IMG/VR virus record: IMGVR_UViG_2537561977_000033
DNA length: 45,340 bases
Direction: 5' to 3' (one strand)
Source: a virus
Taxonomy: Duplodnaviria; Heunggongvirae; Uroviricota; Caudoviricetes
In this document: positions 3,396-45,340 of the stretch, piece by piece
Layout: every line of letters starts with the position of its first letter
How positions within the stretch are numbered: position 1 is the stretch's first letter
Notes under the pieces: generated by a model
Databases searched by the model: none
Told to the model about the DNA's origin: nothing
Seen by the model: only the letters and a program-made list of their open reading frames with translations
Program-made: the position numbers and the translations under genes

Positions 3396-3986
3396 ATGTC
3401 TCGAATTTTTGCTTACTGTCGGATATCAACGCTGGATCAGACCACCGAAAATCAACGCCGGGAAATCGAAAGTGCAGGTTTTAAAATCAAACCTCAGCAA
3501 ATAATCGAAGAACACATTAGCGGCTCAGCAGCAACCAGTGAGCGTCCTGGTTTTAACCGGTTGCTTGCTCGCCTGAAATGTGGTGATCAATTGATTGTGA
3601 CAAAACTGGATCGCCTTGGTTGTAATGCAATGGATATCAGGAAAACAGTGGAACAACTGACCGAAACAGGTATCAGAGTGCATTGCTTAGCATTGGGGGG
3701 CATTGACCTGACCAGTCCAACAGGAAAAATGATGATGCAAGTAATTTCAGCAGTCGCTGAATTTGAACGAGACCTTTTACTTGAACGCACTCATTCCGGG
3801 ATAGTAAGAGCCCGCGGCGCAGGGAAACGTTTTGGTCGACCACCTGTGTTAAATGAAGAACAGAAACAGGCGGTATTCGAACGAATTAAGTCAGGTGTAA
3901 GTATAAGTGCCATTGCCCGGGAATTCAAAACCTCGCGGCAAACCATTTTAAGAGCCAAAGCAAAACTTCAGACACCTGACATATAA
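3396..3986 (+). CDS. pin: Pin/Gin/Hin-family serine DNA invertase, 196 aa
   Basis: [20 protein letters not shown]... with the catalytic Ser in the YCRIS motif and a C-terminal HTH; matches Pin of E. coli cryptic prophages. Confidence 0.85.
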
Positions 3987-4082
3987 AAATAATCTCGGTG
4001 TGAGATGCTTTACGTCTTCCAAGCCCCCTTCCTTGCCGTAAATGGAAAGATACATCTAATTATAGAATTTATATGTTTTACC

Positions 4083-4658
4083 CTACGGCAGTGCTGGCCA
4101 TTCAATATCCTGTGCAGTTGACGTATCAACACGGTTCAGCAATACCCGATACTTTTTCCATGCTTCCAGCAACGAGATTTCTTCCTCCGTTGCAATTTCC
4201 AGATCTGCAGCATCCTGAAGCGGCGCAATATGCTCACTGGCTACCTGCATCAGGTTGTTTTTTGTTTCTTCCGCCTCCCGGATCCGGAACAGTTTTTCTG
4301 CTTCCGTATCCTTCACCCAGGCTGTGCCGTTCCACTTCTGAAACTCCCCTTCCGGCGATAACCAGGTAACATTTTCCGGTAACGGACCGAGTTCAGAAAT
4401 AAATAACGCGTCGCCGGAAGCCACGTCATAAACCGTTTTACCCCGATGATCTTCAACGAGATGCCACGATGACTCATCACTGTTGAAAACAGCCACGAAG
4501 CCAGCCGGAATATCTGGCGGTGCAATATCGGTACTGTTTGCTGGCAGACCTGTATGAGGCGGAATATATGCATCACCTTCACCAATAAATTCATTAGTTC
4601 CGGCCAGCAGATTATAAATTTTTATGGTCCGTGGTTGTTCACTCATTCTGAATGCCAT
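4083..4658 (-). CDS. tfa: tail fiber assembly protein, 191 aa
   Basis: Immediately downstream of the fiber gene with start/stop overlap at 4656-4660; sequence matches remembered TfaQ/lambda Tfa. Confidence 0.8.
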
Positions 4659-6313
4659 TATGCAAGCCTCACAATATAGTTAAATGCGATGTTTTTGACG
4701 GTGTTTTCCGCGTTACCAGCAGCGTTAACGGTGATGGTGTGTCCATGTGAACCAATCGCAACGGAGTGCGTATGAGCACCAATACCGACAGTATGTGCAT
4801 GTGCGCCTGCGCTTGCAGCAGTACCGGACAGCGAGTGGGTATGAGCACCATCTGATGATGTCTTCCCTGCATTACGAGTCTGGCCACTACCGCTTGTTGT
4901 GCTCATAATCCCCGCGCTTAGATTTGAAATCGCGGTATAACCATTAGGGAAAATGCTCGTGTTCGTGCCACCAAATGCACCGGAACTCTTGTGTTGGTGC
5001 GCACCGGCACTATTTGCGGTCCCGCTAATACTATGGGTATGCGCCCCGGTGTTATTCGTGGATTTGGTTCCGTAATCAAACGACGATGTGGTTTTCGTCC
5101 CCAAATCCGTACTGGATGCGCTGGCGCTGTGGGTGTGCGATTTAATGCCGTCCTGTTCCTGAGTTAATACGGCCCGACCACTGGCGGGCTTGCCCTTAAT
5201 CGTCCAGCCACGCATATCAGGGATCACGCCTGACGGATAAGCAACTGCAAGTTTCGGGTATGCAGATTTGTCAAAAGTCTGCCCCTGCATCAGGGCATAA
5301 CCAGACGGAACGGTATCTGATGGCCACGGGATTGGTGCACCGACTGGATAAAACTCTGCAGGAGGATGAGCCGAGGTGTAAAGCTGCGCCCACGGCGACC
5401 AGTTTGCGTCGGTCGTATCCCGTCGTGAACGAATAAATGCCGGAGCATGAGCACCGCTTGTACCACTCCAGCCGATGAGTAACTCACCTTCGCCAACGGC
5501 TGTCATCCCTTTCAGGTGAATGATATTTCCATACGCTGTTGGATATCCGTTGTTATACACCTCGTATAACTCAAGACCTGCTGCCCCCTGCGTATTGTCT
5601 GTCAGCGCGGTTACCCGACCTTTTGAAGCCAGATTAACTGATGATACTGCTGTTCCACCTGACGGTAACGCCCCGATCTCTGATGCCGTTGGCTTATTTC
5701 TGGAGTTATAGTCCCTTCGCCAGCCAGGTGAATAATCTGTTCCGTGATTAATATAGGTAAACTGGGCGTTAGTTGTTCCACCACCAGTGGAGGTGGTCGG
5801 TGTGGTAATGCGGATCGTCATCGCTGACTTTATCCCCATTACTTCAATGACAGCTCCGGCGAGATGAATATTACCGCAGTCAGTATCAGTAATGATTTTA
5901 TTATTGCCATAAGACCAGGACCCCTTGCACATCCAGTAGGGATGGTTAAATGCTCCCTGAGAATCCAGCCACTCGATAAACTGTGCAGTCGTCCAGTTTC
6001 CTGTTGTTGTGCTTACTGACCCACCGAAGGCACGGCAGGCACCAATATTTTTCGTAAAGGTATCTTTGCCAGGGATATCCGCACCGTTCTGATCTTTCTG
6101 CAGACGTTTCTCAGCATTGTCATTGGCTGCTTTTACTGCCTTTGGCGTTGCCGCCAGCGTTTCAGACGTGCTGTTGGTCGCGCTGCTTAACTGGATTATC
6201 CCTTTGTGCTGTCGTTGCATCCTGTGCGGTGTATTTCCCGTTAGCCAGGTCATACGCGGCCTTAACGGCTTTTGGCGTTGCCGCCTGTGACTCGGAAGTG
6301 CTGTTGGTCGCAC
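4658..6313 (-). CDS. stf: side tail fiber, C-terminal distal part; frame differs from the upstream stf part, real translation start unclear
   Basis: C-terminus ...[40 protein letters not shown] matches lambda Stf; carries the conserved box [26 protein letters not shown] near its N-terminus; first ~35 codons look like out-of-frame read-through. Confidence 0.7.
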
Positions 6314-6335
6314 TACTGAGCTGGACTATCCCCTT
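6141..6335. repeat. two direct copies (~64 bp each, ~130 bp apart) of the conserved tail-fiber recombination box
   Basis: 6141-6204 and 6271-6335 align with about 15 mismatches and one 1-nt length difference; both encode ...[11 protein letters not shown]...ATPKAVKAA in different frames. Confidence 0.8.
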
Positions 6336-7736
6336 TTTCGTCGTGCTCGCATCCTCAAGCGCCACGGCGGATGCAATATCCTCTGCCCGTTTTGCCGCTG
6401 TCTCGGCGCGCGTTGCCGCGGTTTCTGCCGTACTTTTGCTCTGTGCTGCCGCTGTCGCACTGCCAGCAGCCTCTGTCGCCTTCGTGGATGCTGTCGTGGC
6501 GCTGCCCTTCGCTGCTGACGCCTGTCTGGTCGCCTCATCTTTTGAAGCTGACGCCGATGATGCCGATGAAGCCGCCGAACTGGCGGACGATGCGGCAGCC
6601 GTTTTTGAGGATTCTGCGCTGGTTTCCGACGCTTTCGCGTTCGTCTCGGATGTCTTCGCTGCGGAAGCAGACCTCGCTGCTGCACTGGCCTGTTCAGTGG
6701 CTTCGCCAGCCTTCGTTGTGGCTGTTGAAGCAGACGAGGCGGCACTTTCTGCCGACTTTCCGGCAGCGGTGGCACTGGCTGAGGCCTGCCCGGCACTTGT
6801 TGACGCGGTACTGGCAGATGATGCAGCCGCTGTTTTTGAGCCTGCCGCAGCTGAGGCACTCTGTCCCGCTGCCGTTTCAGAAGACCTGGCGTTCGTCTCG
6901 GACGTCTTTGCCGCCTTCGCGGAATTTCCTGCCGCCGTTGCCGAGGAAGCGGCACTACTGGCGCTTGATGATGCGTTCGTTTCTGATGATTTCGCTGCCT
7001 CTTTTGAGGCCGCCGCATCCCGGGCTGAGGTGGCAGCTTCTGACGCCTTTGTGGTCGCTGCGGATGCAGAAGTGGCTGCAGATTTTTGTGACGCTGCCGC
7101 ATTCGTTTCTGACGTTTTCGCCGCACCGGCACTGGTAGCTGCCGCGCTTTTTGAGGACTCTGCAGCGGCAGCACTTTTTGATGCTTCAGTAGCCTTTGTT
7201 GATGCCGTTCCTGCGCTGGAAGACGCTGACTGAGCCGACGTCGCGGCCTGCCCGGCTGATGTGCTGGCTGCACGTGCTGAGCCTGCAGCATCAGTCGCAT
7301 GGGTTGCCGCCTCACGGGCTGATGTGCCGGCATCGCCGGCTGACTTCTTCGCGGCTGCCGTGTTCTGTGCCACCGCGGACGCGTTACGCGCCACCTCTTC
7401 CACCATCAGCTCAAAACGGCGCAGTGCCTCCGGACGGGCATCATCCTCCGTCATGGCACCGAGAAAATCATTCAGCGTACCGGGTCGGGAATCTTCATAC
7501 ACGGTGATGGTCCCGGCATGTGACGGCGGGAATCCTTCCACCAACAGAATAACGCTGTACTGACCGTACTCAACGTCCATACTGTAACGCCCGGCTTCAT
7601 CCGGATTTTCTGAGGCCAGCGTGTTCACCACCACCGTGGTGCTGTTACGTTTTGCTTTCAGCTGGATTGTGCAGTTCTGTACCGGTTTTCCTGTGCCGTC
7701 TTTCAGTACACCTGAAATCTTTACTGCCATATTCAC
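6162..7736 (-). CDS. stf: side tail fiber, N-terminal proximal part, 524 aa, Ala/Ser-rich repeats
   Basis: N-terminus [37 protein letters not shown]... matches lambda Stf; ends shortly after the conserved box, inside the second copy of the repeat. Confidence 0.75.
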
Positions 7737-7741
7737 CCCAC

Positions 7742-7768
7742 AAAAAAGCCCGCCTGAACCGGCGGGCT
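7742..7768 (-). terminator. rho-independent terminator downstream of lom
   Basis: On the minus strand GCCCGCCGGTTCAGGCGGGC followed by TTTTTT. Confidence 0.5.
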
Positions 7769-7794
7769 GTCATAACACTGTGTTACCTGGCTAA

Positions 7795-8394
7795 TCAGAA
7801 TTTATAACCGACACCCACGATGAAACTGTTGGTACGCCAGTCACCGCTGCCGGAGCCTTCATAAGCGACGTCAACGGCCACGGATTCGGTCGGGTTAAAC
7901 TGCACGCCAGCTCCCCACGCCAGAGACGTGTTGCTGTGGCGACCGTCATCACTTCCGGTCAGCACATCGTGCGTTTTCCCCTTGTTGTCAGTTACGCGGA
8001 TATAATCTCCGGAGAAAGTCGAAACACGGCTGTAAGCCATACCCGCCATCGCATACGCGCTGAACCATTCATTCACGCGCACAGACGGCCCCGCCATCAC
8101 GCTGAACCAGCGGTTACGCACGGAATCTTCATGCCAGCGGGTATCGCTGTAATGCGTTTTTTGCTCATCTTCAGCGTTGGCATAACTGAATGACGTAATC
8201 AGCCCCAGCGTGTCCGTAAACTCATAACGGTATTTCACGTTAATCCCGTTCAGATTATCGCTGCCGGGAGCGTTCGTACGGGCATGAAGATACCCTGCGC
8301 TCAGTGTGGCCTGCTGCTCAGACGCCCATGCAGGCGCACCGAATACGGCCAGACAAATGGCTGCGGACAAAATGGCGGCATAAAGTTTACGCAT
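7795..8394 (-). CDS. lom: Lom outer-membrane protein (Ail/Lom family), 199 aa, with signal peptide
   Basis: [24 protein letters not shown]... ends in a beta-barrel motif ...GVGYKF; lambda Lom position between J and stf. Confidence 0.8.
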
Positions 8395-26340: not shown

Positions 26341-26656
26341 ACTACCACTGCTGGTTCAGAGTTAAAAAAACTATGATTTTTTCATGATGTTACCGTAGTA
26401 TGTGAGTATCCATCGAATAGACACCAAGCAAAAAAGCTCCCGAAGGAGCCTTCATTTTCACTTTTTTAAATCCAACGACAGACGGCTGGCATTTAAGTAT
26501 TGTGAAATATTATCAAATGTAATCATCATTGATTTACAAAAGATACATTTTGCCCCGAAAGGATTCATGTCAGAAACATCAAAAGATGATGTTCTATACT
26601 GGGAACCATGACAACACGGGCATCTAAAGTGAATATGGTTTGTAATATTGTCTACC

Positions 26657-26869
26657 TCAAAGCGCCACTACATGAACAGCGGCAGGACCTTTAGGTCCGT
26701 TCTCAATACCAAATTCAACTTCCTGATTCTCAGTTAATGTTTTGAAATCGTTGCTCTGAATTGCTGAGAAATGGACAAACACATCTTTGCTGCCATCTTT
26801 CGGCGTGATGAAACCAAAACCTTTTTCAGGGTTAAACCATTTCACTAAACCAGTCATTTTGTTAGACAT
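26657..26869 (-). CDS. cspI: cold-shock protein (CspA family), 70 aa
   Basis: [38 protein letters not shown]... with RNP1/RNP2 motifs; matches my memory of CspI. Confidence 0.8.
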
Positions 26870-27230
26870 AATTATTACCTTTTGAAGAAATTAGCCCTTG
26901 GGCAGAATGGTCCGAAAAAAATATCAGAGAGAAAAACCAACAAGGAAATCTCAAGAGGTACAAATAATAAAATTATAACAATGACTGCTTCAGATAAATT
27001 TGTAACAAACCAGAACACCATTAACGCATGATTAACCACCCATAGCAAGGATTACTTTTGTAAAGAAAAACACAGCAATGAAAGAATAGCTTTATTTATT
27101 AATAAAACGTGTCATTCTGATTAAGACCTTTTATCTTACCCTTAAGATTTCAGGAATTTTGGCTCATGGAAGAGTCCTTTTTATTCAAATTTTACATTCC
27201 GCGATGTAAATGTTCCGATTTAATATTACC

Positions 27231-28253
<1,023 letters not shown>

Positions 28254-29175: not shown

Positions 29176-29537
29176 TTGATTTTATTAGTAACAAGTATTT
29201 TTATATTTTAATAATATATTTAAAGCAGATAATAAAAAACCCGCCTGAGCGGGTTTGAGATTGTGGTGCTTTTTGTGGGAGTCATCCACTTACGCACTTT
29301 GTTTTGCCATGCCAGCAGTTAGCTTCTGCTGTAAAACTATTCATGCAGCAAACCTGCACTTCACCACAATGGTTAGCATACTTTTCCTGATTAAGATTTT
29401 GCCAAATATGCTAGCCATTGTTTCATGTATTGGACCTCCTTACTTTTTATTAAAGAGATCCAATATTCACTACTCTGTCCGTATCTCTACTCAGGCATCA
29501 GCCTTCTTCGTTATCGTATACAGACGAGCGATGAATT

Positions 29538-29753
29538 TTAATCAGTAATGATGACATTTGCTGCTGCAGGACCTTTAGCACCACTCTCTATAGAGAAGGT
29601 AACCTTTTGACCTTCAAATAAGGTTCGATAATTATCATTCTGAATCGCAGAAAAATGCACAAACACATCTTTACTACCATCAACAGGAGAAATAAAGCCG
29701 AAACCTTTATCAGCGTTAAACCATTTTACTAAACCAGTCATTTTATTTGACAT
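29538..29753 (-). CDS. cspB: cold-shock protein (CspA family), 71 aa
   Basis: [51 protein letters not shown]... matches my memory of CspB. Confidence 0.8.
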
Positions 29754-30052
29754 TCTACATTCCTTAACTTGAGCCTTTCGGCATAAATGGTTTGCATAAC
29801 AGAAACGACTTCGTACTTAATTGGAGAGACTCAAAGAAGGAATAAGTGAATAACACCTGAAATGAGAACTGCTTTAGTAAACTACTTCGTATATCGTCTG
29901 TTCTTCAAACCGACGCAATCATTAACGCATAGTTGAACATATGAAGCAATGTTTATTTTAGACATCCAGCCGTCTTCAACCCCATCAAAAACTATAGCTT
30001 TCTTCAGGAACGTGTGTATAGTGCGCCAAGTTATCAGTATTAAGGAATTTTT

Positions 30053-30265
30053 TTGTCCCGTAAAATGACAGGAATTGTCAAAACCTTTGACGGCAAAAGC
30101 GGCAAGGGTCTTATCACCCCATCCGATGGTCGTATCGATGTCCAGCTTCATGTTTCAGCGCTCAATCTCCGCGATGCAGAAGAAATTACCACCGGATTAC
30201 GCGTGGAATTTTGCCGGATAAATGGTCTGCGTGGCCCTTCAGCTGCCAATGTTTACCTTTCATGA
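30053..30265 (+). CDS. cspF: cold-shock-domain protein, divergent CspF/CspH-type, 70 aa
   Basis: [44 protein letters not shown]...[18 protein letters not shown]. Confidence 0.75.
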
Positions 30266-31452: not shown

Positions 31453-32541
31453 TTACGCCAGTACGCCAATTGCCAGCGCGCGATCGATAAAACGAAATAT
31501 CAGCTCCAGTTGGGAGCCATACTTATCTTCAAATGCCACTGTATCCGTATGCAGCTCGTTGTGATGCTTTCTGCACAAAGGCAACACAAAGAGATCATGT
31601 GCTTTTGTTCCCATTCCGCCCTGCCCGTGACCAATCAGATGATGCGGATCGTCGGCTGGCATACCGCAGCAAGCACACGGCTGTGTCTTAACCCAACGTG
31701 TGTATTTCTCCTTAACCCAGCGGCGACGTTTAGGCAGCTTCATGAAAGATTCCGGAGACTCTGGATCAACGGTGATGCTTACCACCGTCTTTTCCTGTGG
31801 TGATTTTTGTTGCTGGTGGGCGTAAGGCAACGGTGCAAGATTTTTTGTGCGTTGTTTCAATATTCTGGTGGCGGTCTGCTCTCCCGGTACGATGTCGCTT
31901 TCGCGGTACACCGAGCAGATTTTTTCCGCTGGTAATCCCAGCGAACGACGCGATACAGCCTCAGGTAGTGCATCCACCACCTGATTGCAGACCGCCCACC
32001 AGGATAATTCAGCCAAAGATAATTCCCGCTCCTGCGTACCGCTTATTGCGTGACGGATGACGTCAATCACCCATGCTGTCAGATTTTGTTGAGCAAGCAG
32101 CTCCAGTGATTCCGATGTCTGGTCACGCAGTTGGTTGTCGCAGTGCCAGCACAACACCATTGCGCCGGTACCATAACGGTGAATGACTGTTTCAGTGTGA
32201 TGGTAATCGCCATTAGGCCACTGGCAGGATGTAACATGACGTAATAGCCAGTCGGACAATGCGCCAACGCCGCCAGCAGCACGAATCACCCGTTCGTTAC
32301 TAAAAAACGGCAGCAATGTTTTGTCTTCCGCCAGCGGCTGGCGAACGGCAGGAACGACTCCGGATGGCAGATTACGCATGCTTTTTGGTTCCGGTTCCAC
32401 CAGCACTCGAGGATTATGAAATATCTGTATGGATTCACGGCCCGGCTTAAGGACCACCAGCCCAAGCTCAGGCACCAGAACAGGTCTAAGTAATACCCGC
32501 ACGTTACCTCCAGATCCGTTGCTGGAAAGTGCGGGACGCAC
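31453..32541 (-). CDS. ydfU: DUF968-family protein with C-terminal HNH-like Cys/His motif; start uncertain
   Basis: C-terminus ...PCACCGMPADDPHHLIGHGQGGMGTKAHDLFVLPLCRKHHNELH; upstream of Q as ydfU is in K-12 Qin. Confidence 0.55.
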   Translation of the reverse strand: MRPALSSNGSGGNVRVLLRPVLVPELGLVVLKPGRESIQIFHNPRVLVEPEPKSMRNLPSGVVPAVRQPLAEDKTLLPFFSNERVIRAAGGVGALSDWLLRHVTSCQWPNGDYHHTETVIHRYGTGAMVLCWHCDNQLRDQTSESLELLAQQNLTAWVIDVIRHAISGTQERELSLAELSWWAVCNQVVDALPEAVSRRSLGLPAEKICSVYRESDIVPGEQTATRILKQRTKNLAPLPYAHQQQKSPQEKTVVSITVDPESPESFMKLPKRRRWVKEKYTRWVKTQPCACCGMPADDPHHLIGHGQGGMGTKAHDLFVLPLCRKHHNELHTDTVAFEDKYGSQLELIFRFIDRALAIGVLA

Positions 32542-33315: not shown

Positions 33316-33471
33316 TTACTCCTCAGGTTCGTAAGCTGTGAAGACAGCGACCTCCGTCTGGCCGGTTCGGATTCGTACCTCGCAAAGGTCTTTCCTCGTT
33401 ACCAGTGCCGTCACTATGACGGTTAAACAGATGACGATCAGGGCGATTAACATCGCCTTTTGCTGCTTCAT
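33316..33471 (-). CDS. hokD: Hok-family type I toxin, 51 aa
   Basis: Hand translation of the minus strand: MKQQKAMLIALIVICLTVIVTALVTRKDLCEVRIRTGQTEVAVFTAYEPEE; not in the ORF track (short). Confidence 0.8.
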   Translation of the reverse strand: MKQQKAMLIALIVICLTVIVTALVTRKDLCEVRIRTGQTEVAVFTAYEPEE

Positions 33472-33542
33472 AGCCTGCTTCTCCTGTCAACGCAAAGCAG
33501 AAGTGTCACCTTCGGTGCGAAACAGAGATGTCATGCTTTGGT

Positions 33543-33830
33543 TCAGAGAATGCGTTTGACCGCCTCGCTATATACTTCCGAGCGTTCTCTTTTCCCAACA
33601 GAAATCACGAAAACGACAACTTTCTCGTCTATAACCTGGTATACAAGGCGATAGCCTGAAGACCGGAGCTTAATCTTGTAACAATCAGGCATACCACGGA
33701 GCTTGTTTGCTTCAATCCGGGGTGACTCAAGTACTTCAACCAACTTCTTTTTCAACTGTTCACGTACCGTCGAGCCCAGCTTTCGCCATTCCTTTAGTGC
33801 CCGCTCGTCAAAATCCAGAAAATACGCCAT
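33543..33830 (-). CDS. relE: RelE mRNA interferase toxin, 95 aa
   Basis: MAYFLDFDERALKEWRKLGSTVREQLKKKLVEVLESPRIEANKLRGMPDCYKIKLRSSGYRLVYQVIDEKVVVFVISVGKRERSEVY matches RelE. Confidence 0.85.
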   Translation of the reverse strand: MAYFLDFDERALKEWRKLGSTVREQLKKKLVEVLESPRIEANKLRGMPDCYKIKLRSSGYRLVYQVIDEKVVVFVISVGKRERSEVYSEAVKRIL

Positions 33831-34069
33831 CAGAGTTCATCCAGCGTCACACGTACTGGCTTAGGATTACGAAGCCGTTCTTTCACTATCTCCACAAGTT
33901 CAGCATCTTCATCACTCAGGAGTGTCTGTTTGAACGGCAAGCGTTCATTGTCAGCGATATACTCGAGCATGAGACGAAGCGCTTCAGAAGGAGTTACACC
34001 CATTTTTTCAAGCGCGGCGTAAGAACGCGCTTTAAGTTCATCGTCAATACGCAGGTTAATGCTACCCAT
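33830..34069 (-). CDS. relB: RelB antitoxin, 79 aa
   Basis: MGSINLRIDDELKARSYAALEKMGVTPSEALRLMLEYIADNERLPFKQTLLSDEDAELVEIVKERLRNPKPVRVTLDEL matches RelB; stop/start overlap with relE. Confidence 0.85.
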   Translation of the reverse strand: MGSINLRIDDELKARSYAALEKMGVTPSEALRLMLEYIADNERLPFKQTLLSDEDAELVEIVKERLRNPKPVRVTLDEL

Positions 34070-35129: not shown

Positions 35130-36790
35130 GTCACTTTTGTGGGGACAGTCCACAAAACTGCCAACTTCCGCTTCTTGCTCTTAGCGGACATTAGCATAGG
35201 CTATTTACCATAACGCCTCATTACGCGCACCGCCCAGACTGACTCAGCGCGTTTCTGGCATATCCCCGGTAAAACAAGTAACAACCCCCCCGAAAATGAA
35301 CACCAGAAACGCGACTTAAGAATCTACCCTATGAATGGATATGCACTCAACCGAATCGATCTTGGTTTCAATCTATTTTATCGGGATCAGGCTTCTTTTT
35401 AGGTAACTTCGGGGGCTTAACTTGCTGATGACTTTGCGTTCGGCGCGTAAGCCAGGGATGGTCAGCTTTAGATTTAACATAGTATTTTGAGCGTAAATCA
35501 ATACGGGCATTATCCACTCGTTCATGGACACTCTTTTCATCATCCAGTGGTATAGGCTCCGGGCCATCAACATACTTTTCCCAGCCCAGCGCTTTCCCGT
35601 CATACAGAACGTTAATTTCACCGTCAAAGTTCTCACATACAGTAACAACCGAATGCCTAAGTCGATATCCCCGGCCCTCACTGCGTACCTGAAACGCACT
35701 GCTTTTGTACTGGAAAGTGAGATTTTTAGACAGAACGCGCTTCGCCTGTAGGCTGAAGATATAACCCAGTTCCTCTTCAGAATGGTGCACATCAAGATGA
35801 GCATTATCAGTAGTACGAGGCGACGTAGCGAACCGGTTGTTATAGGCTTCAATAAAGGTCGGCAACCATGCATTTGCTGTTTCAATATCACTGATATTCT
35901 GAAGCCGCATTTCTTTGACCAGCCTGTCCTGTAGTGTCTGATTGGCGCGCTCTACCCGCCCTTTTGCCTGCGGGCTGTTGGCATGGATTGGCTCGATGCC
36001 CAGTGTCTTTATCGCACGAGTGAACTGGGTCAGCTCACCTTCCCGCTCTGGGTTATTTACCCTGAATATACTGTGTCTATCAGAGTAGAGAGCGAGCGGT
36101 ACGCCATGATCATTAAGGTAACCCCGGAGGGTTTCCATGTAAGCCCGGGTTGTTTCAGCAGGCACAAAACGCAACGCCATCAACGCACTGGTGGCATCAT
36201 CAATGAAAACGATCAGTGTACATCTGGGGCCTCGATTTTCAAACCAGTCATGCGGTGAGCCATCAATCTGGATCAGTTCACCGTAAGATGGTCGTCGCAT
36301 GCGGCGTTGATATATACGGGCAATTTTACGACGGCGTTCACGCCATAACCCCTCTTCTATCATCCACTTTCTGAGAGTTTCAACGGATAAAGATAAACCG
36401 TGTATCTCGCGCAATTTTTCGCACGCAAACGTAGGTCCAAAATCAGCGTAACGGCCTTTGAGGAGTGAAATTACTGTTGCTCTGAATTCAGTAGAAAAGG
36501 AATTATTAGGACGCTTTCCACGTCGGTGGGAAACCAGACCAGAAGGCCCTTCATTTCTATACCGTTGCACCAGACGTTTAACCTGCCGAATAGAAATGCC
36601 AATGCGTGCCGCAGCTTGTTCCTGAGTAATATGTCGATTAATTGACTCCTGAATAATCTGAAGTCGGTGGAGTTCCTTATGACTCATCGTAACAGTCTCT
36701 TTGATCATGAAAAATCCCCCAGAGAATTGTCTGGGGACATTTTAGAATGGTTCAAAGGGGACATTACAGCTTGGTGTTAACAATAGCCTG
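35130..36790 (-). mobile_element. insertion sequence carrying an integrase-fold DDE transposase (IS481/ISNCY-like); boundaries approximate
   Basis: Transposase gene 35368-36708; palindromic GGGGACA-containing sequences on both sides (35136-35160; 36711-36770); exact ends and target duplication not resolved. Confidence 0.4.
35368..36708 (-). CDS. DDE transposase with N-terminal HTH and rve integrase core, 446 aa
   Basis: MIKETVTMSHKELHRLQIIQESINRHITQEQAAARIGISIRQVKRL... (HTH), then candidate catalytic D (IQIDGSPHDWF), D (LYSDRHSIF) and E (AKGRVERANQTLQDRL). Confidence 0.8.
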   Translation of the reverse strand: MIKETVTMSHKELHRLQIIQESINRHITQEQAAARIGISIRQVKRLVQRYRNEGPSGLVSHRRGKRPNNSFSTEFRATVISLLKGRYADFGPTFACEKLREIHGLSLSVETLRKWMIEEGLWRERRRKIARIYQRRMRRPSYGELIQIDGSPHDWFENRGPRCTLIVFIDDATSALMALRFVPAETTRAYMETLRGYLNDHGVPLALYSDRHSIFRVNNPEREGELTQFTRAIKTLGIEPIHANSPQAKGRVERANQTLQDRLVKEMRLQNISDIETANAWLPTFIEAYNNRFATSPRTTDNAHLDVHHSEEELGYIFSLQAKRVLSKNLTFQYKSSAFQVRSEGRGYRLRHSVVTVCENFDGEINVLYDGKALGWEKYVDGPEPIPLDDEKSVHERVDNARIDLRSKYYVKSKADHPWLTRRTQSHQQVKPPKLPKKKPDPDKID

Positions 36791-38221: not shown

Positions 38222-38669
38222 TTGCTTTTTCTATAAGTTCGTCAGTTTCACGATCCACTACGGCAGGATCAGCAAAAAGCAGTCCGGACTCCACCACATC
38301 GCCATATTCTTTGTTTAACCCGGCGATCATGTACGTGATGCTTTTTCCGTCACTAATTTCACGATACAACCTGAAATCATTAATCCGAATAGCCTCCATA
38401 ATTGCAGGCACTAGCGCCGTGAACTTTTCACGCTTATCCCTGGTGTCGATAGCCTTCCAGCGTTCGAATATCTTCACTCGATTAACGCCAAGTGCTCGCT
38501 GATCAACCGCGCCACCTTCATCTGTGACACGCTGAACATCGATGTTCGGGCGCTCTTTCAAAGCCCAGAATGCTTCTGTGATTAATATCGTCGCCTGCTC
38601 CTGTGTCATTCCTGGTCGACATATCCAGGCATCCAGAGCCTCACGAGCCTGTTCAGGAGTGATTTTCAT
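38148..38669 (-). CDS. hypothetical early protein, 173 aa (cII/YdaT position)
   Basis: First gene after dicC in the same operon; overlaps the dicC 3' end by 17 bp. Confidence 0.35.
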   Translation of the reverse strand: MKITPEQAREALDAWICRPGMTQEQATILITEAFWALKERPNIDVQRVTDEGGAVDQRALGVNRVKIFERWKAIDTRDKREKFTALVPAIMEAIRINDFRLYREISDGKSITYMIAGLNKEYGDVVESGLLFADPAVVDRETDELIEKAIAFKLAYRQQYQQKAGWNYEPSFC

Positions 38670-38883
38670 TGTTCAACCGCCCCGCCCGCTTCGTCTTACG
38701 ATATTCATCATAAACTTTGGGATCATACTGAAGCTCCCCGCCAGATGCCTCCTGTAGACGCATCGCGCGACCTTCGGGAACTAAATCCCCTTTCCAGCTA
38801 TAAAGCGAAGCCAAACGAATACCTGCTGCTTGTGCAAGTTTTGTTTTTGAACCGAAATACAAAAGAGCGTCAGTTTTAAGCAT
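38653..38883 (-). CDS. dicC: Cro-like repressor DicC, 76 aa
   Basis: MLKTDALLYFGSKTKLAQAAGIRLASLYSWKGDLVPEGRAMRLQEASGGELQYDPKVYDEYRK... matches DicC; divergent from dicA. Confidence 0.8.
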   Translation of the reverse strand: MLKTDALLYFGSKTKLAQAAGIRLASLYSWKGDLVPEGRAMRLQEASGGELQYDPKVYDEYRKTKRAGRLNNENHS

Positions 38884-38966: not shown

Positions 38967-39374
38967 ATGGAAACAAAAAATTTAACTATCGGCGAACGCA
39001 TCAGGTATCGTCGGAAAAACCTCAAACACACCCAAAGGTCTCTTGCTAAAGCCCTGAAAATCTCCCATGTGTCTGTATCACAATGGGAACGGGGTGATAG
39101 TGAACCTACAGGGAAGAACCTTTTTGCCCTCAGCAAAGTATTGCAATGCTCACCAACATGGATTCTATTTGGCGATGAAGACAAGCAACCAACACCACCT
39201 GTTGAGAAGCCAGTTGCCTTATCCCCCAAAGAACTAGAGCTCCTTGAGCTGTTTAATGCACTGCCAGAATCAGAACAGGATACCCAGCTCGCCGAAATGC
39301 GAGCTCGAGTAAAAAACTTCAATAAACTCTTTGAAGAATTACTAAAAGCCCGTCAGCGGACAAATAAAAGATAA
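38967..39374 (+). CDS. dicA: XRE-family repressor DicA, 135 aa
   Basis: METKNLTIGERIRYRRKNLKHTQRSLAKALKISHVSVSQWERGDSEPTGKNLFALSKVLQCSPTWILFGDED... matches DicA. Confidence 0.9.
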   Translation: METKNLTIGERIRYRRKNLKHTQRSLAKALKISHVSVSQWERGDSEPTGKNLFALSKVLQCSPTWILFGDEDKQPTPPVEKPVALSPKELELLELFNALPESEQDTQLAEMRARVKNFNKLFEELLKARQRTNKR

Positions 39375-39540: not shown

Positions 39541-39696
39541 ATGGATACTATCGATCTTGGCAACAACGAATCTCTGGTGTACGGCGTGTTTCCAAACCAG
39601 GACGGCACGTTCACCGCAATGACGTATACCAAAAGCAAAACGTTTAAAACCGAAAATGGTGCCCGTCGCTGGCTGGAAAGAAACTCAGGTGAGTGA
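39541..39696 (+). CDS. ydfA: YdfA, 51 aa
   Basis: MDTIDLGNNESLVYGVFPNQDGTFTAMTYTKSKTFKTENGARRWLERNSGE. Confidence 0.7.
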   Translation: MDTIDLGNNESLVYGVFPNQDGTFTAMTYTKSKTFKTENGARRWLERNSGE

Positions 39697-39697
39697 T

Positions 39698-40273
39698 ATG
39701 GATTTCGACACAATCATGGAAAAGGCTTACGAAGAATACTTCGAAGGCCTTGCCGAAGGCGAAGAAGCTCTCAGCTTCAGTGAGTTTAAACAGGCACTCA
39801 GAATAAGAATGTGCTCTCACAATGACGCGGAGCACAAATATGAGAAGCAAAATCAGACCGCAGGAAATTTTGTTCTGGAACCCGGAGAAACGCTTTTCAA
39901 AATTCCCGTTACGTGCCCCATTTGCGGTTTTACATCAGAAGAACTTGACGACTCCTGTAACAATCAGGAAACAACCAAGTATGTCGAAGATGATACCGAG
40001 TGCGCACGAAGAACGATTATATCCACGAGTCCAAACTCCAGGACCAATAAATCTCACTATGAGAGGGTGATTAATCCACTCCCCCAAACCAATAAAAAAG
40101 ATGCCGGAGGACAAAAAACCCAATGGAACAACGGGATATCTGTCAAAAAAAGACGTTCCATTAAAGACAAACAACGCAGCGCCAACAACTGTAAGCGCTT
40201 TATACCAGTAATCAATTTTCATGTTCTTAAGCGGATTTATTGGTGGTTGCGACATTGCTTAATGAATCCTTAA
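39698..40273 (+). CDS. 191-aa ORF covering the region K-12 splits into ydfB and ydfC; contains a CPICGF zinc-finger-like motif
   Basis: Starts MDFDTIMEKAYEEYFEGLAEGEEALSFSEFKQAL... and continues uninterrupted to 40273. Confidence 0.4.
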   Translation: MDFDTIMEKAYEEYFEGLAEGEEALSFSEFKQALRIRMCSHNDAEHKYEKQNQTAGNFVLEPGETLFKIPVTCPICGFTSEELDDSCNNQETTKYVEDDTECARRTIISTSPNSRTNKSHYERVINPLPQTNKKDAGGQKTQWNNGISVKKRRSIKDKQRSANNCKRFIPVINFHVLKRIYWWLRHCLMNP

Positions 40274-40532: not shown

Positions 40533-40585
40533 TTTCTGGTGACGTTTGGCGGTATCAGTTTTACTCCGTGACTGCTCTGCCGCCC
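40533..40585 (+). ncRNA. dicF: DicF small regulatory RNA (ftsZ-targeting), ~53 nt, followed by a T-run
   Basis: TTTCTGGTGACGTTTGGCGGTATCAGTTTTACTCCGTGACTGCTCTGCCGCCC matches the DicF sequence as I remember it; between the ydfB/C region and dicB. Confidence 0.8.
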
Positions 40586-40759
40586 TTTTTAAAGTGAATT
40601 TTGTGATGCGGTGAATACGGCTAAGCGCACGCGGAACAGTTAAAACCAAAAACAGTGTTATGGGTGGATTCTCTGTATCCGACGTTAATTGTTAACTGGT
40701 TAACGTCACCTGGAGGCACCAGGCACTGCATCACAAAATTCATTGTTGAGGACGCGATA

Positions 40760-40948
40760 ATGAAAACGTTATTACCAAACGTTAATACGTCTGAAGGTTG
40801 TTTTGAAATTGGTGTCACTATCAGTAACCCTGTATTTACTGAAGATGCCATTAACAAGAGAAAACAAGAACGGGAGCTATTAAATAAAATATGCATTGTT
40901 TCAATGCTGGCTCGTTTACGTCTGATGCCAAAAGGATGTGCACAATGA
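40760..40948 (+). CDS. dicB: cell-division inhibitor DicB, 62 aa
   Basis: MKTLLPNVNTSEGCFEIGVTISNPVFTEDAINKRKQERELLNKICIVSMLARLRLMPKGCAQ. Confidence 0.85.
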   Translation: MKTLLPNVNTSEGCFEIGVTISNPVFTEDAINKRKQERELLNKICIVSMLARLRLMPKGCAQ

Positions 40949-41136
40949 ATTCAGCATTTGCGCTTGTTCTGACAGTTTTTCTTGTTTCCGGAGTGCCAGT
41001 TGATATTGCAGTCAGTGTTCACAGGACAATGCAGGAGTGTATGACTGCAGCAACCGAACAGAAAATTCCCGGTAACTGTTACCCGGTCGATAAAGTTATT
41101 CACCAGGATAATATCGAAATCCCGGCAGGTCTTTAA
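40945..41136 (+). CDS. ydfD: YdfD small lysis-associated membrane protein, 63 aa
   Basis: MNSAFALVLTVFLVSGVPVDIAVSVHRTMQECMTAATEQKIPGNCYPVDKVIHQDNIEIPAGL; start overlaps the dicB stop. Confidence 0.7.
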   Translation: MNSAFALVLTVFLVSGVPVDIAVSVHRTMQECMTAATEQKIPGNCYPVDKVIHQDNIEIPAGL

Positions 41137-41229
41137 AACAGTTCCGTAATAAATATCCGGTTTCATTCTTATATGCCAGCAATGGCAGGGATTTGTTCAT
41201 CCTTAAATCTGTCATGAGGTTAAAACAAA

Positions 41230-43701
41230 ATGAGTAAAGTCTTTATTTGCGCCGCTATTCCTGACGAACTGGCAACAAGGGAAGAAGGCGCTGTGGCTGT
41301 AGCCACAGCCATTGAAGCTGGCGACGAACGCCGTGCTCGAGCAAAATTTCACTGGCAGTTCCTGGAACATTATCCGGCTGCTCAGGACTGCGCTTATAAA
41401 TTTATTGTCTGCGAGGATAAACCTGGCATACCCCGCCCTGCCCTCGATTCATGGGATGCTGAATATATGCAGGAAAACCGCTGGGATGAGGAGTCTGCTT
41501 CTTTTGTCCCGGTTGAGACTGAATCCGATCCGATGAACGTCACTTTTGACAAGCTGGCCCCTGAAGTACAGAACGCTGTCATGGTTAAGTTCGACACATG
41601 TGAAAACATCACCGTTGATATGGTTATTAGCGCACAGGAATTGTTGCAGGAAGACATGGCAACATTCGACGGACATATCGTTGAAGCGTTGATGAAAATG
41701 CCAGAAGTTAACGCCATGTATCCGGAGCTTAAGTTGCACGCCATTGGGTGGGTTAAGCATAAATGTATTCCTGGTGCTAAATGGCCCGAAATTCAGGCAG
41801 AGATGCGCATCTGGAAAAAACGTCGCGAAGGTGAACGCAAGGAAACCGGAAAATACACGTCTGTTGTTGATCTCGCCCGCGCCAGAGCCAATCAACAGTA
41901 CACTGAAAATTCAACAGGAAAAATCAGCCCGGTCATTGCTGCCATTCATCGCGAATACAAGCAGACATGGAAAACACTGGATGACGAACTGGCCTACGCT
42001 CTCTGGCCTGGTGATGTGGATGCCGGAAACATTGACGGCAGCATCCATCGCTGGGCAAAAAAAGAAGTTATCGACAACGACCGCGAAGACTGGAAGCGTA
42101 TCTCGGCATCAATGCGCAAACAGCCTGATGCCCTTCGCTACGACCGCCAAACTATTTTTGGCCTTGTCCGTGAGCGTCCGATCGACATTCACAAAGATCC
42201 CGTAGCACTGAACAAATATATCTGCGAATACCTGACGACAAAGGGCGTGTTTGAGAATGAAGAAACAGACCTGGGCACTGTTGATGTTCTCCAGTCATCA
42301 GAAACACAAACTGATGCAGTGGAAACTGAGGTATCTGATATCCCAAAAAATGAAACCGCGCCGGAAGCTGAACCATCTGTAGAGCGTGAGGGGCCGTTCT
42401 ATTTCCTCTTCGCAGATAAGGACGGAGAAAAATACGGTCGCGCAAACAAACTTTCTGGTCTGGATAAGGCACTGGCTGCTGGCGCCACTGAAATCACAAA
42501 AGAAGAATATTTTGCCCGAAAAAATGGCACATACACGGGCTTACCGCAAAATGTAGATACCGCTGAAGATTCAGAACAACCAGAGCCGATAAAAGTTACC
42601 GCTGACGAAGTAAACAAAATTATGCAGGCAGCCAATATCAGCCAGCCTGACGCCGATAAGTTGCTTGCTGCATCACGTGGTGAATTTGTTGAAGGGATTA
42701 GTGACCCGAATGATCCGAAATGGGTTAAGGGGATCCAGACCCGCGATTCTGTGAACCAGAACCAGCATGAATCGGAACGGAACTACCAAAAAGCGGAACA
42801 AAACAGTCCAAATGCGTTACAAAACGAGCCAGAAACGAAACAGCCTGAACCAGTGGCGCAACAGGAAGTGGAAAAAGCCTGCACCGCCTGCGGTCAGACC
42901 GGCGGCGGCAACTGCCCTGATTGTGGCGCGGTGATGGGCGACGCAACATACCAAGAAACATTCGATGAAGAGTATCAGGTTGAAGTTCAGGAAGATGATC
43001 CGGAGGAAATGGAAGGCGCTGAACATCCACACAAGGAGAACACTGGCGGCAATCAGCATCACAATAGCGATAATGAAACTGGCGAGACGGCAGATCACCC
43101 AATTAAGGTGAACGGTCATCACGAAATCACATCCACCAGCAGGACGTGTGACCATCTAATGATCGACCTTGAAACCATGGGAAAAAATCCTGATGCCCCG
43201 ATCATCTCAATAGGTGCAATATTTTTCGATCCGCAAACCGGAGATATGGGACCGGAATTTAGTAAGACTATCGATCTGGAAACTGCTGGCGGAGTCATTG
43301 ATCGGGACACCATTAAATGGTGGCTTAAGCAATCACGCGAAGCGCAATCTGCCATTATGACCGATGAAATCCCGTTAGATGATGCACTGTTACAATTGCG
43401 GGAATTTATCGACGAAAACTCCGGTGAATTTTTTGTTCAGGTTTGGGGAAATGGAGCCAACTTCGACAACACGATTTTGCGCCGTTCATACGAACGGCAG
43501 GGGATCCCCTGCCCGTGGCGTTACTACAACGATCGCGATGTACGCACAATCGTTGAGCTGGGGAAAGCCATAGACTTCGATGCCAGAACGGCTATTCCAT
43601 TCGAAGGTGAGCGCCATAATGCACTTGATGACGCCCGTTACCAGGCAAAATACGTTTCAGTTATCTGGCAAAAACTGATCCCGAGTCAGGCTGATTCTTA
43701 A
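41230..43701 (+). CDS. large exonuclease-like protein, 823 aa: acidic N-terminal ~600 aa of unknown function, CxxC-x6-CxxC zinc ribbon, C-terminal DEDDh (DnaQ-like) 3'-5' exonuclease domain
   Basis: C-terminal motifs in DEDDh order: DLETMG (Exo I), WGNGANFDNTIL (Exo II), HNALDDARYQAKY (Exo III); zinc ribbon CTACGQTGGGNCPDCG; sits between the dicB operon and xis-int (recombination-gene position). Confidence 0.6.
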   Translation: MSKVFICAAIPDELATREEGAVAVATAIEAGDERRARAKFHWQFLEHYPAAQDCAYKFIVCEDKPGIPRPALDSWDAEYMQENRWDEESASFVPVETESDPMNVTFDKLAPEVQNAVMVKFDTCENITVDMVISAQELLQEDMATFDGHIVEALMKMPEVNAMYPELKLHAIGWVKHKCIPGAKWPEIQAEMRIWKKRREGERKETGKYTSVVDLARARANQQYTENSTGKISPVIAAIHREYKQTWKTLDDELAYALWPGDVDAGNIDGSIHRWAKKEVIDNDREDWKRISASMRKQPDALRYDRQTIFGLVRERPIDIHKDPVALNKYICEYLTTKGVFENEETDLGTVDVLQSSETQTDAVETEVSDIPKNETAPEAEPSVEREGPFYFLFADKDGEKYGRANKLSGLDKALAAGATEITKEEYFARKNGTYTGLPQNVDTAEDSEQPEPIKVTADEVNKIMQAANISQPDADKLLAASRGEFVEGISDPNDPKWVKGIQTRDSVNQNQHESERNYQKAEQNSPNALQNEPETKQPEPVAQQEVEKACTACGQTGGGNCPDCGAVMGDATYQETFDEEYQVEVQEDDPEEMEGAEHPHKENTGGNQHHNSDNETGETADHPIKVNGHHEITSTSRTCDHLMIDLETMGKNPDAPIISIGAIFFDPQTGDMGPEFSKTIDLETAGGVIDRDTIKWWLKQSREAQSAIMTDEIPLDDALLQLREFIDENSGEFFVQVWGNGANFDNTILRRSYERQGIPCPWRYYNDRDVRTIVELGKAIDFDARTAIPFEGERHNALDDARYQAKYVSVIWQKLIPSQADS

Positions 43702-43773: not shown

Positions 43774-44025
43774 ATGAGCGAAGTAATCATGATTGTCTCT
43801 CCCGGCAAATGGGTATCCGAAGAGCAGTTAATTGCGCTGAAAGGAATAAAAAAAGGTACGTTAAAAAAGGCCCGGGAAAAATCGTTTATGGAAGGAAGGG
43901 AATATAAGCATGTCGCTCATGACGGTATGCCATGGGATAACAGTCCATGCTTTTACAACCTGGAAGAAATTGATCGCTGGATTGAGCGCCAGGCATCAGC
44001 GAGACCAAGACGTCATCTTACTTGA
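43774..44025 (+). CDS. xis: excisionase-like small protein, up to 83 aa
   Basis: Small basic protein immediately upstream of the integrase; alternative start MIVSPGKW... Confidence 0.45.
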   Translation: MSEVIMIVSPGKWVSEEQLIALKGIKKGTLKKAREKSFMEGREYKHVAHDGMPWDNSPCFYNLEEIDRWIERQASARPRRHLT

Positions 44026-44044
44026 CTAAAAGCCACACTAACTA

Positions 44045-45340
44045 ATGAGAGAAGTTGAAATGAAATATCCGACAGGCGTGGAAAACCATGGAGGGAAATT
44101 ACGTATCTGGTTTGTTTATAAAGGCGTAAGAGTCAGGGAAAATCTGGGGGTTCCTGACACAGCAAAAAACAGGCGCGTTGCAGGTGAACTACGCTCCTCT
44201 GTTTGTTACGCAATAAAAACTGGTGTTTTCGACTATGCAAAACAGTTTCCCTCCTCACGCAATCTGGAAAAATTTGGTGAGGCCCGACAAGATTTAACCA
44301 TAAAAGAACTGGCTGAAAAATTTCTGGCACTGAAAGAAACTGAAGTCGCCAAAACATCACTCAACACATACCGTGCCGTCATCAAAAATATCCTGAGCAT
44401 AATCGGTGAAAAAAATCTTGCCTCATCGATTAATAAAGAAAAATTACTGGAGGTTCGTAAAGAGCTACTGACTGGATACCAGATCCCCAAAAGTAACTAT
44501 ATTGTTACACAACCAGGGAGATCGGCTGTAACTGTAAATAATTACATGACAAATCTTAACGCCGTGTTCCAGTTTGGTGTTGATAACGGTTACCTGGCAG
44601 ATAATCCGTTTAAGGGGATCTCGCCATTAAAGGAATCAAGAACCATTCCGGATCCTCTTTCGCGGGAGGAATTTATCCGTCTTATCGATGCGTGCAGAAA
44701 TCAGCAAGCAAAAAATTTATGGTGTGTTTCTGTTTATACTGGCGTTCGCCCTGGTGAGCTGTGTGCACTTGGATGGGAGGACATAGATCTGAAAAATGGA
44801 ACAATGATGATCAGGAGAAATTTAGCAAAAGACCGTTTCACGGTACCAAAAACACAGGCGGGAACCAATCGGGTCATTCATCTTATTAAGCCAGCAATCG
44901 ACGCTCTCCGGAGTCAGATGACATTAACGAGACTGAGCAAAGAGCATATCATTGATGTTCACCTCAGAGAGTATGGCAGAACAGAAAAACAAAAATGCAC
45001 CTTTGTTTTTCAACCTGAAGTGTCAGCGAGAGTAAAAAATTATGGTGACCATTTTACCGTTGACTCAATAAGGCAGATGTGGGACGCAGCGATAAAACGT
45101 GCCGGACTCCGCCATCGAAAATCATATCAGTCGAGACATACTTATGCCTGCTGGTCGCTGACAGCTGGTGCTAACCCGGCATTTATAGCAAACCAGATGG
45201 GCCATGCAGATGCGCAAATGGTATTTCAGGTATACGGAAAATGGATGTCTGAAAACAATAATGCACAGGTAGCTTTGTTAAATACACAGTTAAGCGAGTT
45301 TGCCCCAACCATGCCCCATAACGAAGCAATGAAAAATTAA
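44045..45340 (+). CDS. int: tyrosine integrase (phage integrase family), up to 431 aa
   Basis: C-terminal catalytic region with R (GVRPGELCALGWEDID), HxxR (SRHTYACW) and Tyr (VFQVYGKWM); stop at 45338-45340, the last bases of the window. Confidence 0.85.
   Translation: MREVEMKYPTGVENHGGKLRIWFVYKGVRVRENLGVPDTAKNRRVAGELRSSVCYAIKTGVFDYAKQFPSSRNLEKFGEARQDLTIKELAEKFLALKETEVAKTSLNTYRAVIKNILSIIGEKNLASSINKEKLLEVRKELLTGYQIPKSNYIVTQPGRSAVTVNNYMTNLNAVFQFGVDNGYLADNPFKGISPLKESRTIPDPLSREEFIRLIDACRNQQAKNLWCVSVYTGVRPGELCALGWEDIDLKNGTMMIRRNLAKDRFTVPKTQAGTNRVIHLIKPAIDALRSQMTLTRLSKEHIIDVHLREYGRTEKQKCTFVFQPEVSARVKNYGDHFTVDSIRQMWDAAIKRAGLRHRKSYQSRHTYACWSLTAGANPAFIANQMGHADAQMVFQVYGKWMSENNNAQVALLNTQLSEFAPTMPHNEAMKN

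Follow-up and report, generated by a model that had tools for sequence, protein, structure and literature searches.

The IMG/VR virus record IMGVR_UViG_2537561977_000033 (Duplodnaviria; Heunggongvirae; Uroviricota; Caudoviricetes) was analyzed over its whole length of 45,340 nucleotides (nt), referred to below as the window, with emphasis on a large gene of the ydfE type lying directly ahead of the excisionase (xis) and integrase (int) genes. The window represents an intact lambdoid prophage of the Qin type with the gene order dicC, dicA, ydfA, DicF, dicB, ydfD, exonuclease gene, xis, and int, and its integrase end adjoins rspB in complete genomes. The open reading frame (ORF) starts with ATG and encodes 823 amino acids, in which a RecE-like N-terminal scaffold is joined to a C-terminal exonuclease domain of the DEDDh type, with no annealase gene alongside. 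The coding sequence and its putative ribosome-binding site are as follows.

41230 to 43701, plus strand: intact coding sequence of the ydfE-type "exonuclease," RecE-like scaffold plus DEDDh domain (PHROG 2082, identical copies, match to K-12 ydfE)
41216 to 41219, plus strand: Shine-Dalgarno-like GAGG, 10 nt ahead of the ATG (read from the sequence)

The PHROG 2082 match spans the full protein length, and megablast revealed 100%-identical copies in many Escherichia coli chromosomes, annotated as "exonuclease" or "3'-5' exonuclease." Moreover, when 5,426 complete E. coli genomes were compared, 3,537 gave a match covering 80% or more of the gene length, and the gene occurs with the same neighbors in the isolated, viable phages HannyBb (99.9% identity), PhiR42_1 (99.6%), Tritos (99.1%), and mEp460_ev081 (89%). 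The ratio of nonsynonymous to synonymous substitution rates (dN/dS) was 0.09 to 0.10 for the DEDDh domain and 0.06 to 0.15 for the conserved scaffold segments (0.06 to 0.11 for residues 471 to 545 and 0.15 for residues 245 to 345). Considering the identical copies and the low dN/dS values, the gene is real and under purifying selection. K-12 ydfE (b1577), which lies at the same Qin locus beside dicB-ydfD and whose 256 residues are 100% identical to residues 1 to 256, is a pseudogene cut by IS2E, in which residue 257 and all that follows, the nuclease included, are missing. This truncated fragment and the many partial database entries would fit a decaying remnant without current function, kept by the abundance of the prophage; such a relic is very improbable, given that full length and intact catalytic residues are found in thousands of genomes and isolated phages and that dN/dS is ∼0.1. 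Segment-wise comparison with relatives revealed a mosaic, in which near-identical C-terminal halves sit on unrelated N termini. An internal start at M644 for a stand-alone DEDDh protein was considered and rejected, as the nearest AGGA lies 14 nt upstream and there is no good ribosome-binding site. Among the literature mentioning ydfE, titles and abstracts contained no functional study of this gene.

The preliminary description of the locus, made from the sequence alone, had recognized an 823-residue exonuclease with a C-terminal DEDDh domain, and domain searches bore this out. Pfam assigned residues 642 to 813 to PF16473 (Rv2179c-like DEDDh; E value of 2.4e-67, 226.5 bits versus a cutoff of 27), with a match spanning profile positions 2 to 177 of 177, and the PD-(D/E)XK domain (PF12684) was not found by Pfam in the protein; the C terminus was assigned to the DEDDh rather than the PD-(D/E)XK fold. 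The three DnaQ-type exonuclease (Exo) motifs that had been listed lie in the expected order, namely, DLETMG (residues 646 to 651), WGNGANFD (residues 739 to 746), and HNALDDA (residues 796 to 802).

43153 to 43668, plus strand: DEDDh (DnaQ/DexA/Rv2179c-like) 3'-5' exonuclease domain, residues 642 to 813 (Pfam PF16473, T4 DexA 8kel)
43165 to 43173, plus strand: Exo I motif, D646-x-E648 (motif search, DexA alignment)
43465 to 43467, plus strand: Exo II aspartate, D746 (motif search, DexA alignment)
43615 to 43632, plus strand: Exo III motif, H796-x4-D801, the "h" subtype (motif search, DexA alignment)

In an alignment with DexA of phage T4 and three stand-alone phage homologues, residues D646, E648, D746, H796, and D801 share invariant columns with D7, E9, D119, H186, and D191 of DexA; judged by these residues, the domain is catalytically intact. 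Characterized DEDDh members have 3'-5' polarity. The structure of DexA (8kel, E value of 1.5e-6) was the only one in the PDB matched by sequence. Since DexA also belongs to PF16473, the label "exoribonuclease" attached to this family leaves the nature of the substrate undecided. The two proteins share only 26% identity, and DexA differs in being a stand-alone protein of 227 residues with extra loops from a virulent T-even phage. Its residues for recognition of 5-hydroxymethylcytosine (5hmC), W152 and D169, align with Tyr and Ala here, and the column of D90, a DexA tetramer contact, holds Asp (D718), assignments that are locally uncertain at this level of identity. The closest stand-alone homologues, including nucleases from epsilon34 (gp34), Bas106 (Bas106_0031), and phage 1720a-02, are ∼56 to 60% identical to residues 640 to 821 and collinear with them from "HLMIDLETMG" to the C terminus. 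In contrast to the ydfE-type protein, these lambdoid nucleases are scaffold-free (182 to 190 residues), and two of them, from epsilon34 and Bas106, are located inside P22-like modules (kil, erf-like, ssb, [endonuclease], exonuclease, and abc2) beside genes for an Erf-like annealase, a single-stranded DNA-binding protein (SSB), and Abc2, none of which is present here.

The N-terminal ∼600 residues had been described as acidic and devoid of a recognizable motif. The acidity is real, as residues 1 to 640 contain 19% D+E versus 11% K+R and their net charge is −52, while the second part of the description was not upheld. Residues 1 to 256 are those of K-12 ydfE and correspond to the newer Pfam families YdfE_N (PF27430) and YdfE_C (PF27432), and residues 262 to 627 align to residues 278 to 592 of K-12 RecE, encoded by the Rac prophage (BLASTP E value of 3e-62, 40% identity over 366 columns). 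The parts of this region are given below, together with the predicted local distance difference test (pLDDT) values of an AlphaFold2 model of residues 1 to 640 that was built on 48 homologues.

41230 to 41997, plus strand: YdfE_N plus YdfE_C region, residues 1 to 256 (PF27430/PF27432, precomputed; model pLDDT of >90)
41962 to 42264, plus strand: conserved helical middle domain, residues 245 to 345 (RecE homology from ∼278, pLDDT of >90, dN/dS of 0.15)
42265 to 42384, plus strand: acidic linker, residues 346 to 385, predicted to be disordered (composition, model)
42385 to 42534, plus strand: small beta-hairpin/helix domain, residues 386 to 435, GPFYFLFADKDGEKYG... (pLDDT of ∼80)
42601 to 42744, plus strand: two helices plus the GISDPNDPKWVKG motif, residues 458 to 505, nearly identical in RecE (BLASTP, model)
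42880 to 42924, plus strand: four-cysteine ribbon CTAC-x7-CPDC, residues 551 to 565 (motif search; low model confidence)
42955 to 43149, plus strand: highly acidic tract, residues 576 to 640, 28% D+E, predicted to be disordered (composition, model)

A cysteine ribbon just upstream of the nuclease had been noted with a CxxC-x6-CxxC spacing; the ribbon is present, with a spacer of seven residues (C551-x2-C554-x7-C562-x2-C565), the x6 expression finding nothing, and all four cysteines are conserved in RecE. According to our reading of the alignment, identity to RecE rises to ∼85 to 90% from residue 474, over the GISDPNDPKWVKG motif, the ribbon, and the acidic tract. This tract ends at the junction of scaffold and nuclease, which corresponds to RecE residue ∼592, and the similarity breaks off at the start of the RecE nuclease domain, located by Pfam at RecE residues 615 to 850 (PDDEXK-like, PF12684, 4e-28) and given as residues 564 to 866 in a 2023 review (PMC11611040). 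Consistently, the RecE equivalog model NF007259 (NCBIfam) was matched only at positions 271 to 600 and with 281 bits versus a cutoff of 1269. At the other end, RecE carries an N-terminal Exonuc_VIII domain (PF06630), for which Pfam gave no match at an E value of ≤1 in the 823-residue protein, YdfE_N and YdfE_C standing in its place. The confident parts of the scaffold model are residues 1 to 205, 245 to 345 (helical), 390 to 435 (beta-hairpin domain), and 458 to 500 (two helices); residues 1 to 256 are modeled as an alpha/beta subdomain (∼1 to 95) and a helical subdomain (∼110 to 205), and the remainder, including the ribbon, is predicted to be disordered or of low confidence. The model had no significant structural neighbor in the PDB or BFVD, and a single-sequence AlphaFold2 prediction of the full protein was uninformative (mean pLDDT of 34.5).

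An exhaustive profile search with residues 1 to 640 retrieved only 247 cluster representatives among 1.84 billion proteins. The N-terminal module of the long members is either of the YdfE type or of the RecE type (PF06630), two modules that interchange among relatives, while the helical middle domain (residues 245 to 345) is common to most long members mapped and the beta-hairpin/helix domain is 31 to 65% conserved among the relatives having it. Four kinds of C-terminal ends were found on this scaffold, i.e., DEDDh (7 representatives), the RecE PD-(D/E)XK nuclease (∼11), a third tail (17), and a fourth tail (3), and all combinations of N and C termini occur. For instance, a RecE N terminus (100% identical) is joined to the DEDDh domain (99%) in P0245, and YdfE_N occurs together with the RecE nuclease in P0248. 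The fourth tail (P0243, residues 442 to 702; P0376; P0381) matches PHROG 26058 and has no Pfam domain. A natural in-frame deletion was also observed in P0241 (527 residues), in which residues 1 to 368 are joined to most of the DEDDh domain and which is without the beta-hairpin domain, the ribbon, and the acidic tract. The genes that follow the fusions differ by nuclease type. All seven distinct DEDDh fusions examined (the window with HannyBb and Tritos, L006, L013, L014/L015, L022, and L023) are directly followed by xis and/or int, with no annealase, and all three PD-(D/E)XK fusions examined (Rac, L016, and L024) are followed by a RecT-family gene. The presence or absence of recT thus tracks the nuclease type in these fusions, and a nuclease domain accompanied by recT and a DEDDh domain on its own behave as two cassettes that substitute for each other.

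The third tail, characterized by the motif KKSLTDAxKKALSxLGF and a conserved core of ∼190 residues inside a longer C-terminal tail (alignment A2), is carried by P0251 (L011, positions 6001 to 8370), P0298, P0354, P0246, and 13 other representatives. Nine of 10 fused tails matched the Pfam family Rad52_Rad22 just below the threshold (best E value of 0.0013), and stand-alone homologues, which occur in 172 phage records, matched profile positions 23 to 127 of the same family with E values of 0.0012 to 0.0016; a profile search of the PDB found nothing. Considering these repeated subthreshold matches and the Rad52-like label given to gp21 of phage H66 by its depositors, the third tail is probably a Rad52-like annealase. 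In L011, a Sipho_Gp157 gene comes next. The "exonuclease" labels borne by third-tail proteins in PHROGs and many records are probably wrong, and these proteins may correspond to the "RecE-2" group, mentioned by Zheng et al. (PMC12315714) as having no nuclease domain. In phage H66 (L019, Pseudomonas), positions 2983 to 6293 encode a Rad52-like gene, two small genes, a DnaQ-like exonuclease (RNase_T family), an SSB, and an RdgC-like gene, a second and unrelated case of a 3'-5' exonuclease beside an annealase.

The family also bears on the question of substrate. An exoribonuclease acting on the 3' ends of phage or host RNA, e.g., to process or degrade the long early-left transcript containing DicF, would agree with the naming of PF16473 after the Mycobacterium tuberculosis ribonuclease (RNase) Rv2179c, with the name "3'-5' exoribonuclease" on many database copies, and with the transcript that the gene appears to share with the small RNA (sRNA) gene DicF. 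Those names were, however, transferred by homology only, DexA, the only characterized phage member of PF16473, is a DNase, and the scaffold is otherwise joined to DNA nucleases or annealases. Thus, we regard an RNA substrate as quite improbable and favor DNA 3' ends.

The genes around the exonuclease gene and the Chi sites of the window are listed below.

38967 to 39374, plus strand: gene for a DicA/CI-type repressor in the immunity region (divergent dicC/cro-like gene, 38653 to 38883)
40534 to 41136, plus strand: dicBF-type early-left operon genes upstream of the exonuclease gene (DicF sRNA, 40534 to 40585; dicB, 40760 to 40948; ydfD, 40945 to 41136)
43774 to 45340, plus strand: excisionase (43774 to 44025) and tyrosine integrase (44045 to 45340), with no gene between these and the exonuclease gene
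27832 to 27839, 32397 to 32404, 32454 to 32461, and 43133 to 43140, minus strand: Chi sites, on what is probably the phage top strand
31812 to 31819, plus strand: Chi site in the opposite orientation

The 93-nt gap between ydfD and the exonuclease gene contains no promoter-like site and no convincing terminator, suggesting that the gene is cotranscribed with dicB-ydfD. The DicA-type repressor is the presumed controller of this early-left operon, a regulation that we take to be the same as that in the Qin prophage of K-12. In agreement with the preliminary description, xis and int come next and no RecT/Bet-like gene is present. Whole-window tblastn with twelve recombination proteins, among them RecT (two versions), lambda Bet, Erf-like, epsilon34 gp36, the Rad52-like tail, lambda Exo, Gam, Abc2, SSB, and the RecE nuclease domain, yielded chance fragments only (best E value of 0.046 over 20 residues), and Pfam scans of the neighboring genes revealed no annealase. 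The module differs from the two-component RecET/lambda Red type in both respects, as no adjacent gene for a single-strand annealing protein (SAP) was found in the window, and the predicted DEDDh fold is not that of a 5'-3' double-stranded DNA exonuclease producing 3' tails. Compared with RecE of Rac, the protein occupies the same operon position between kil-type genes and xis/int and shares the central/linker region with the four-cysteine ribbon, the GISDPNDPKWVKG motif, and the acidic tract, whereas RecE ends in a PD-(D/E)XK 5'-3' nuclease followed by recT.

A closer counterpart is the nuclease-only module of phage Tritos. Zheng et al. (PMC12315714, 2025) counted DnaQ-like 3'-5' nucleases, some of them from the stand-alone group described above, among the members of lambdoid Rec modules and defined a class B of nuclease-only modules. 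Tritos is the prototype of this class, and each of its four phages carries four or more Chi sites on the top strand. Five Chi sites were found in the window versus 1.6 expected by chance, and 4 of 100 shuffled sequences also contained five. Judging from gene order, the minus strand of the window would be the phage top strand, which gives four sites of top-strand type and places the count exactly at the class threshold; three of them lie within ∼8 kb of the cos/terminase right end, and the fourth falls within the exonuclease gene. This agrees with the pattern published for Chi-rich phages without an annealase, at the lower limit of its range. Given a nuclease without SAP, SSB, or anti-RecBCD genes, as in the Tritos class, the four top-strand Chi sites, and the 99.1% identity of the Tritos protein, which has the same DicF-dicB-ydfD-exo-xis-int neighborhood, the window belongs to this class, with a borderline Chi count. 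No essential difference from Tritos was noted; the main text of PMC12315714 leaves the domain architecture of the nuclease undescribed.

Several other features of the prophage were observed. An intact transposase ORF of 446 residues with helix-turn-helix and rve_3 domains (35368 to 36708, minus strand) lies between ydfW and the DUF977/replication genes, and annotations of other genomes describe its counterpart as a partial transposase (IS1202-like ISEsa1). Between ydfA and DicF, an ORF of 205 residues without a Pfam match (39656 to 40273, plus strand) takes the site of ydfB/ydfC in K-12, and the equivalent ORF of HannyBb is annotated as hypothetical. Rfam cspA-thermoregulator matches (26630 to 27014 and 29522 to 29914, minus strand) overlie cspI (26660 to 26869) and cspB (29541 to 29753), a further prophage cold-shock gene, cspF, is present at 30053 to 30262, and the toxin-antitoxin genes hokD, relE, and relB (33319 to 34069, minus strand) lie between rem and ydfV, an arrangement shared with the Qin prophage of K-12. 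An ORF of 196 residues (3396 to 3986, plus strand) is located where Tritos and HannyBb carry a Pin-type DNA invertase beside the tail-fiber genes, and an Rfam IS009 RNA match (4117 to 4315, minus strand) lies nearby. According to recent papers, PinQ/PinR inversion is reportedly linked to blocked adsorption of phage T2.

As to the role of the ydfE-type protein, the architecture and setting are consistent with an early-operon exonuclease that processes DNA 3' ends on a RecE-type scaffold during lytic growth, leaving strand exchange to the host RecBCD-Chi-RecA pathway, an explanation in which we place about even confidence. The early-left operon of a lambdoid phage of the Qin/Tritos type would be the source of the two-part protein. 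Its first ∼640 residues form a RecE-family scaffold (YdfE-type module, helical middle domain, two small elements, zinc ribbon, and acidic linkers), and its last ∼180 residues, as a DexA/Rv2179c-family DEDDh exonuclease, would digest DNA from free 3' ends. The single DEDDh domain has taken the place of the "RecE PD-(D/E)XK nuclease plus recT" cassette in this lineage, and the phage therefore carries a nuclease-only recombination module. On induction or infection, the scaffold could place the 3'-5' exonuclease at DNA ends or at recombination or replication intermediates, where it would trim 3' tails or flaps, with strand exchange carried out by host RecBCD-Chi-RecA instead of a phage annealase. 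The preliminary description had suggested a RecE-like recombination exonuclease with a different nuclease fold; the RecE homology (RecE residues 278 to 592) agrees with this, and the recombination role is suggested by context. The explanation is favored by the five catalytic residues, the DNase activity of DexA, the exchange of ends on the scaffold among relatives, the genes that follow the fusions, the stand-alone homologues in P22-like modules, the cluster of phage H66, the nuclease-only class of PMC12315714, the Chi sites, and the low dN/dS. What the analysis shows is the architecture with its catalytic residues, the relationship to RecE and DexA, the lack of an annealase, selection on the gene, and its occurrence in viable phages; a DNA substrate, transcription under DicA control together with the neighboring genes, the part in recombination, and the cooperation with RecBCD of the host are inferred.

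The presence of dicB, ydfD, and DicF, all host-takeover genes, in the same early operon could suit a lytic-cycle degradative or counterdefense nuclease, which would attack host or competitor DNA for nucleotides or defense nucleic acids with free 3' ends, and DexA has a documented role in host-DNA scavenging. Temperate lambdoid phages are not known to degrade the host chromosome. In addition, no result here suggests a target, nothing supports the anti-defense function that the preliminary description offered as an alternative, and the RecT- or Rad52-type partners of the scaffold in relatives point to recombination. Such a degradative function is therefore improbable, and we consider it, like the RNase and relic explanations, less likely.

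The main rival of 3'-end processing, although itself unlikely, is an HREX-like function in defense against other phages, in which the prophage nuclease would selectively degrade the modified (5hmC-type) DNA of T-even invaders and thus protect the lysogen. The adjacent dicB of the same operon fits this explanation, since DicB protects cells from some phages, and so does the wide occurrence of the gene in complete E. coli genomes. A precedent is also available in EcD, a stand-alone DexA homologue of E. coli and, like the domain described here, a DexA-family DEDDh exonuclease, which when plasmid-borne degrades T4/5hmC DNA and protects against T4, in a study that found DexA homologues to be most abundant in Escherichia (PMC12153337). 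EcD is, however, a different protein. The possibility that it corresponds to the DEDDh domain of the ydfE-type protein was rejected, as its cloning primers encode MIDTET...TIPETYD. In the alignment with DexA, which is uncertain at 26% identity, the proposed 5hmC-reading residues W152 and D169 fall opposite Tyr and Ala here, and the D90 column holds Asp. Moreover, PADLOC gave only a generic (CRISPR-associated) DEDDh match and no defense system, and the position of the gene in an apparently repressor-controlled operon, without a promoter-like site of its own, fits defense poorly. A defensive role would also leave unexplained both the RecE scaffold and the stand-alone homologues in erf-ssb-abc2 modules.

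Several points weigh against 3'-end processing in recombination as well. According to PMC12315714, 3'-5' exonucleases usually inhibit homologous recombination and one-gene modules are "somewhat suspect," and the Chi count of four equals the class minimum, with five sites arising in some shuffled sequences. The founding member of PF16473, M. tuberculosis Rv2179c, is an RNase, and the homologous EcD was reported as an anti-T4 defense nuclease (PMC12153337). The scaffold is without a structural match in the PDB and BFVD, so that its proposed tethering role is a conjecture, and the role of the protein as a whole is predicted from sequence and context.

As a sequence finding, the gene is ordinary. 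Its domains and its module class are already catalogued, in PHROG 2082, as RefSeq "exonuclease," and in the Tritos class of the 2025 paper PMC12315714, of which the preliminary description was unaware; its observation is confirmed and its interpretation partly supported. What this analysis adds, of modest value, is the precise RecE/DEDDh junction, the rule connecting nuclease type and recT, and a lead on the fusion of the scaffold to a Rad52-like tail. Nevertheless, some two-thirds of the complete E. coli genomes, as well as viable temperate phages, have a match to nearly the whole gene, and the protein bears on two competing published views of the 3'-5' exonucleases in phage Rec modules, which may promote or block recombination or serve as defense nucleases. 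Full-length RecE is in standard use for cloning by linear-linear recombineering, and it has a large scaffold in common with the ydfE-type protein, whose natural swaps of nuclease type and N-terminal module could help to find the binding partner of the scaffold. More tentatively, and with considerable doubt on our part, the RecE/YdfE N-terminal region may be a portable recombination hub with three end-effectors (PD-(D/E)XK plus RecT, DEDDh alone, and a Rad52-like annealase), of which the DEDDh form would represent an annealase-independent pathway, its 3'-end trimming feeding host RecBCD-Chi-RecA. If this were true, a study of the hub could show the role of the N-terminal two-thirds of RecE.

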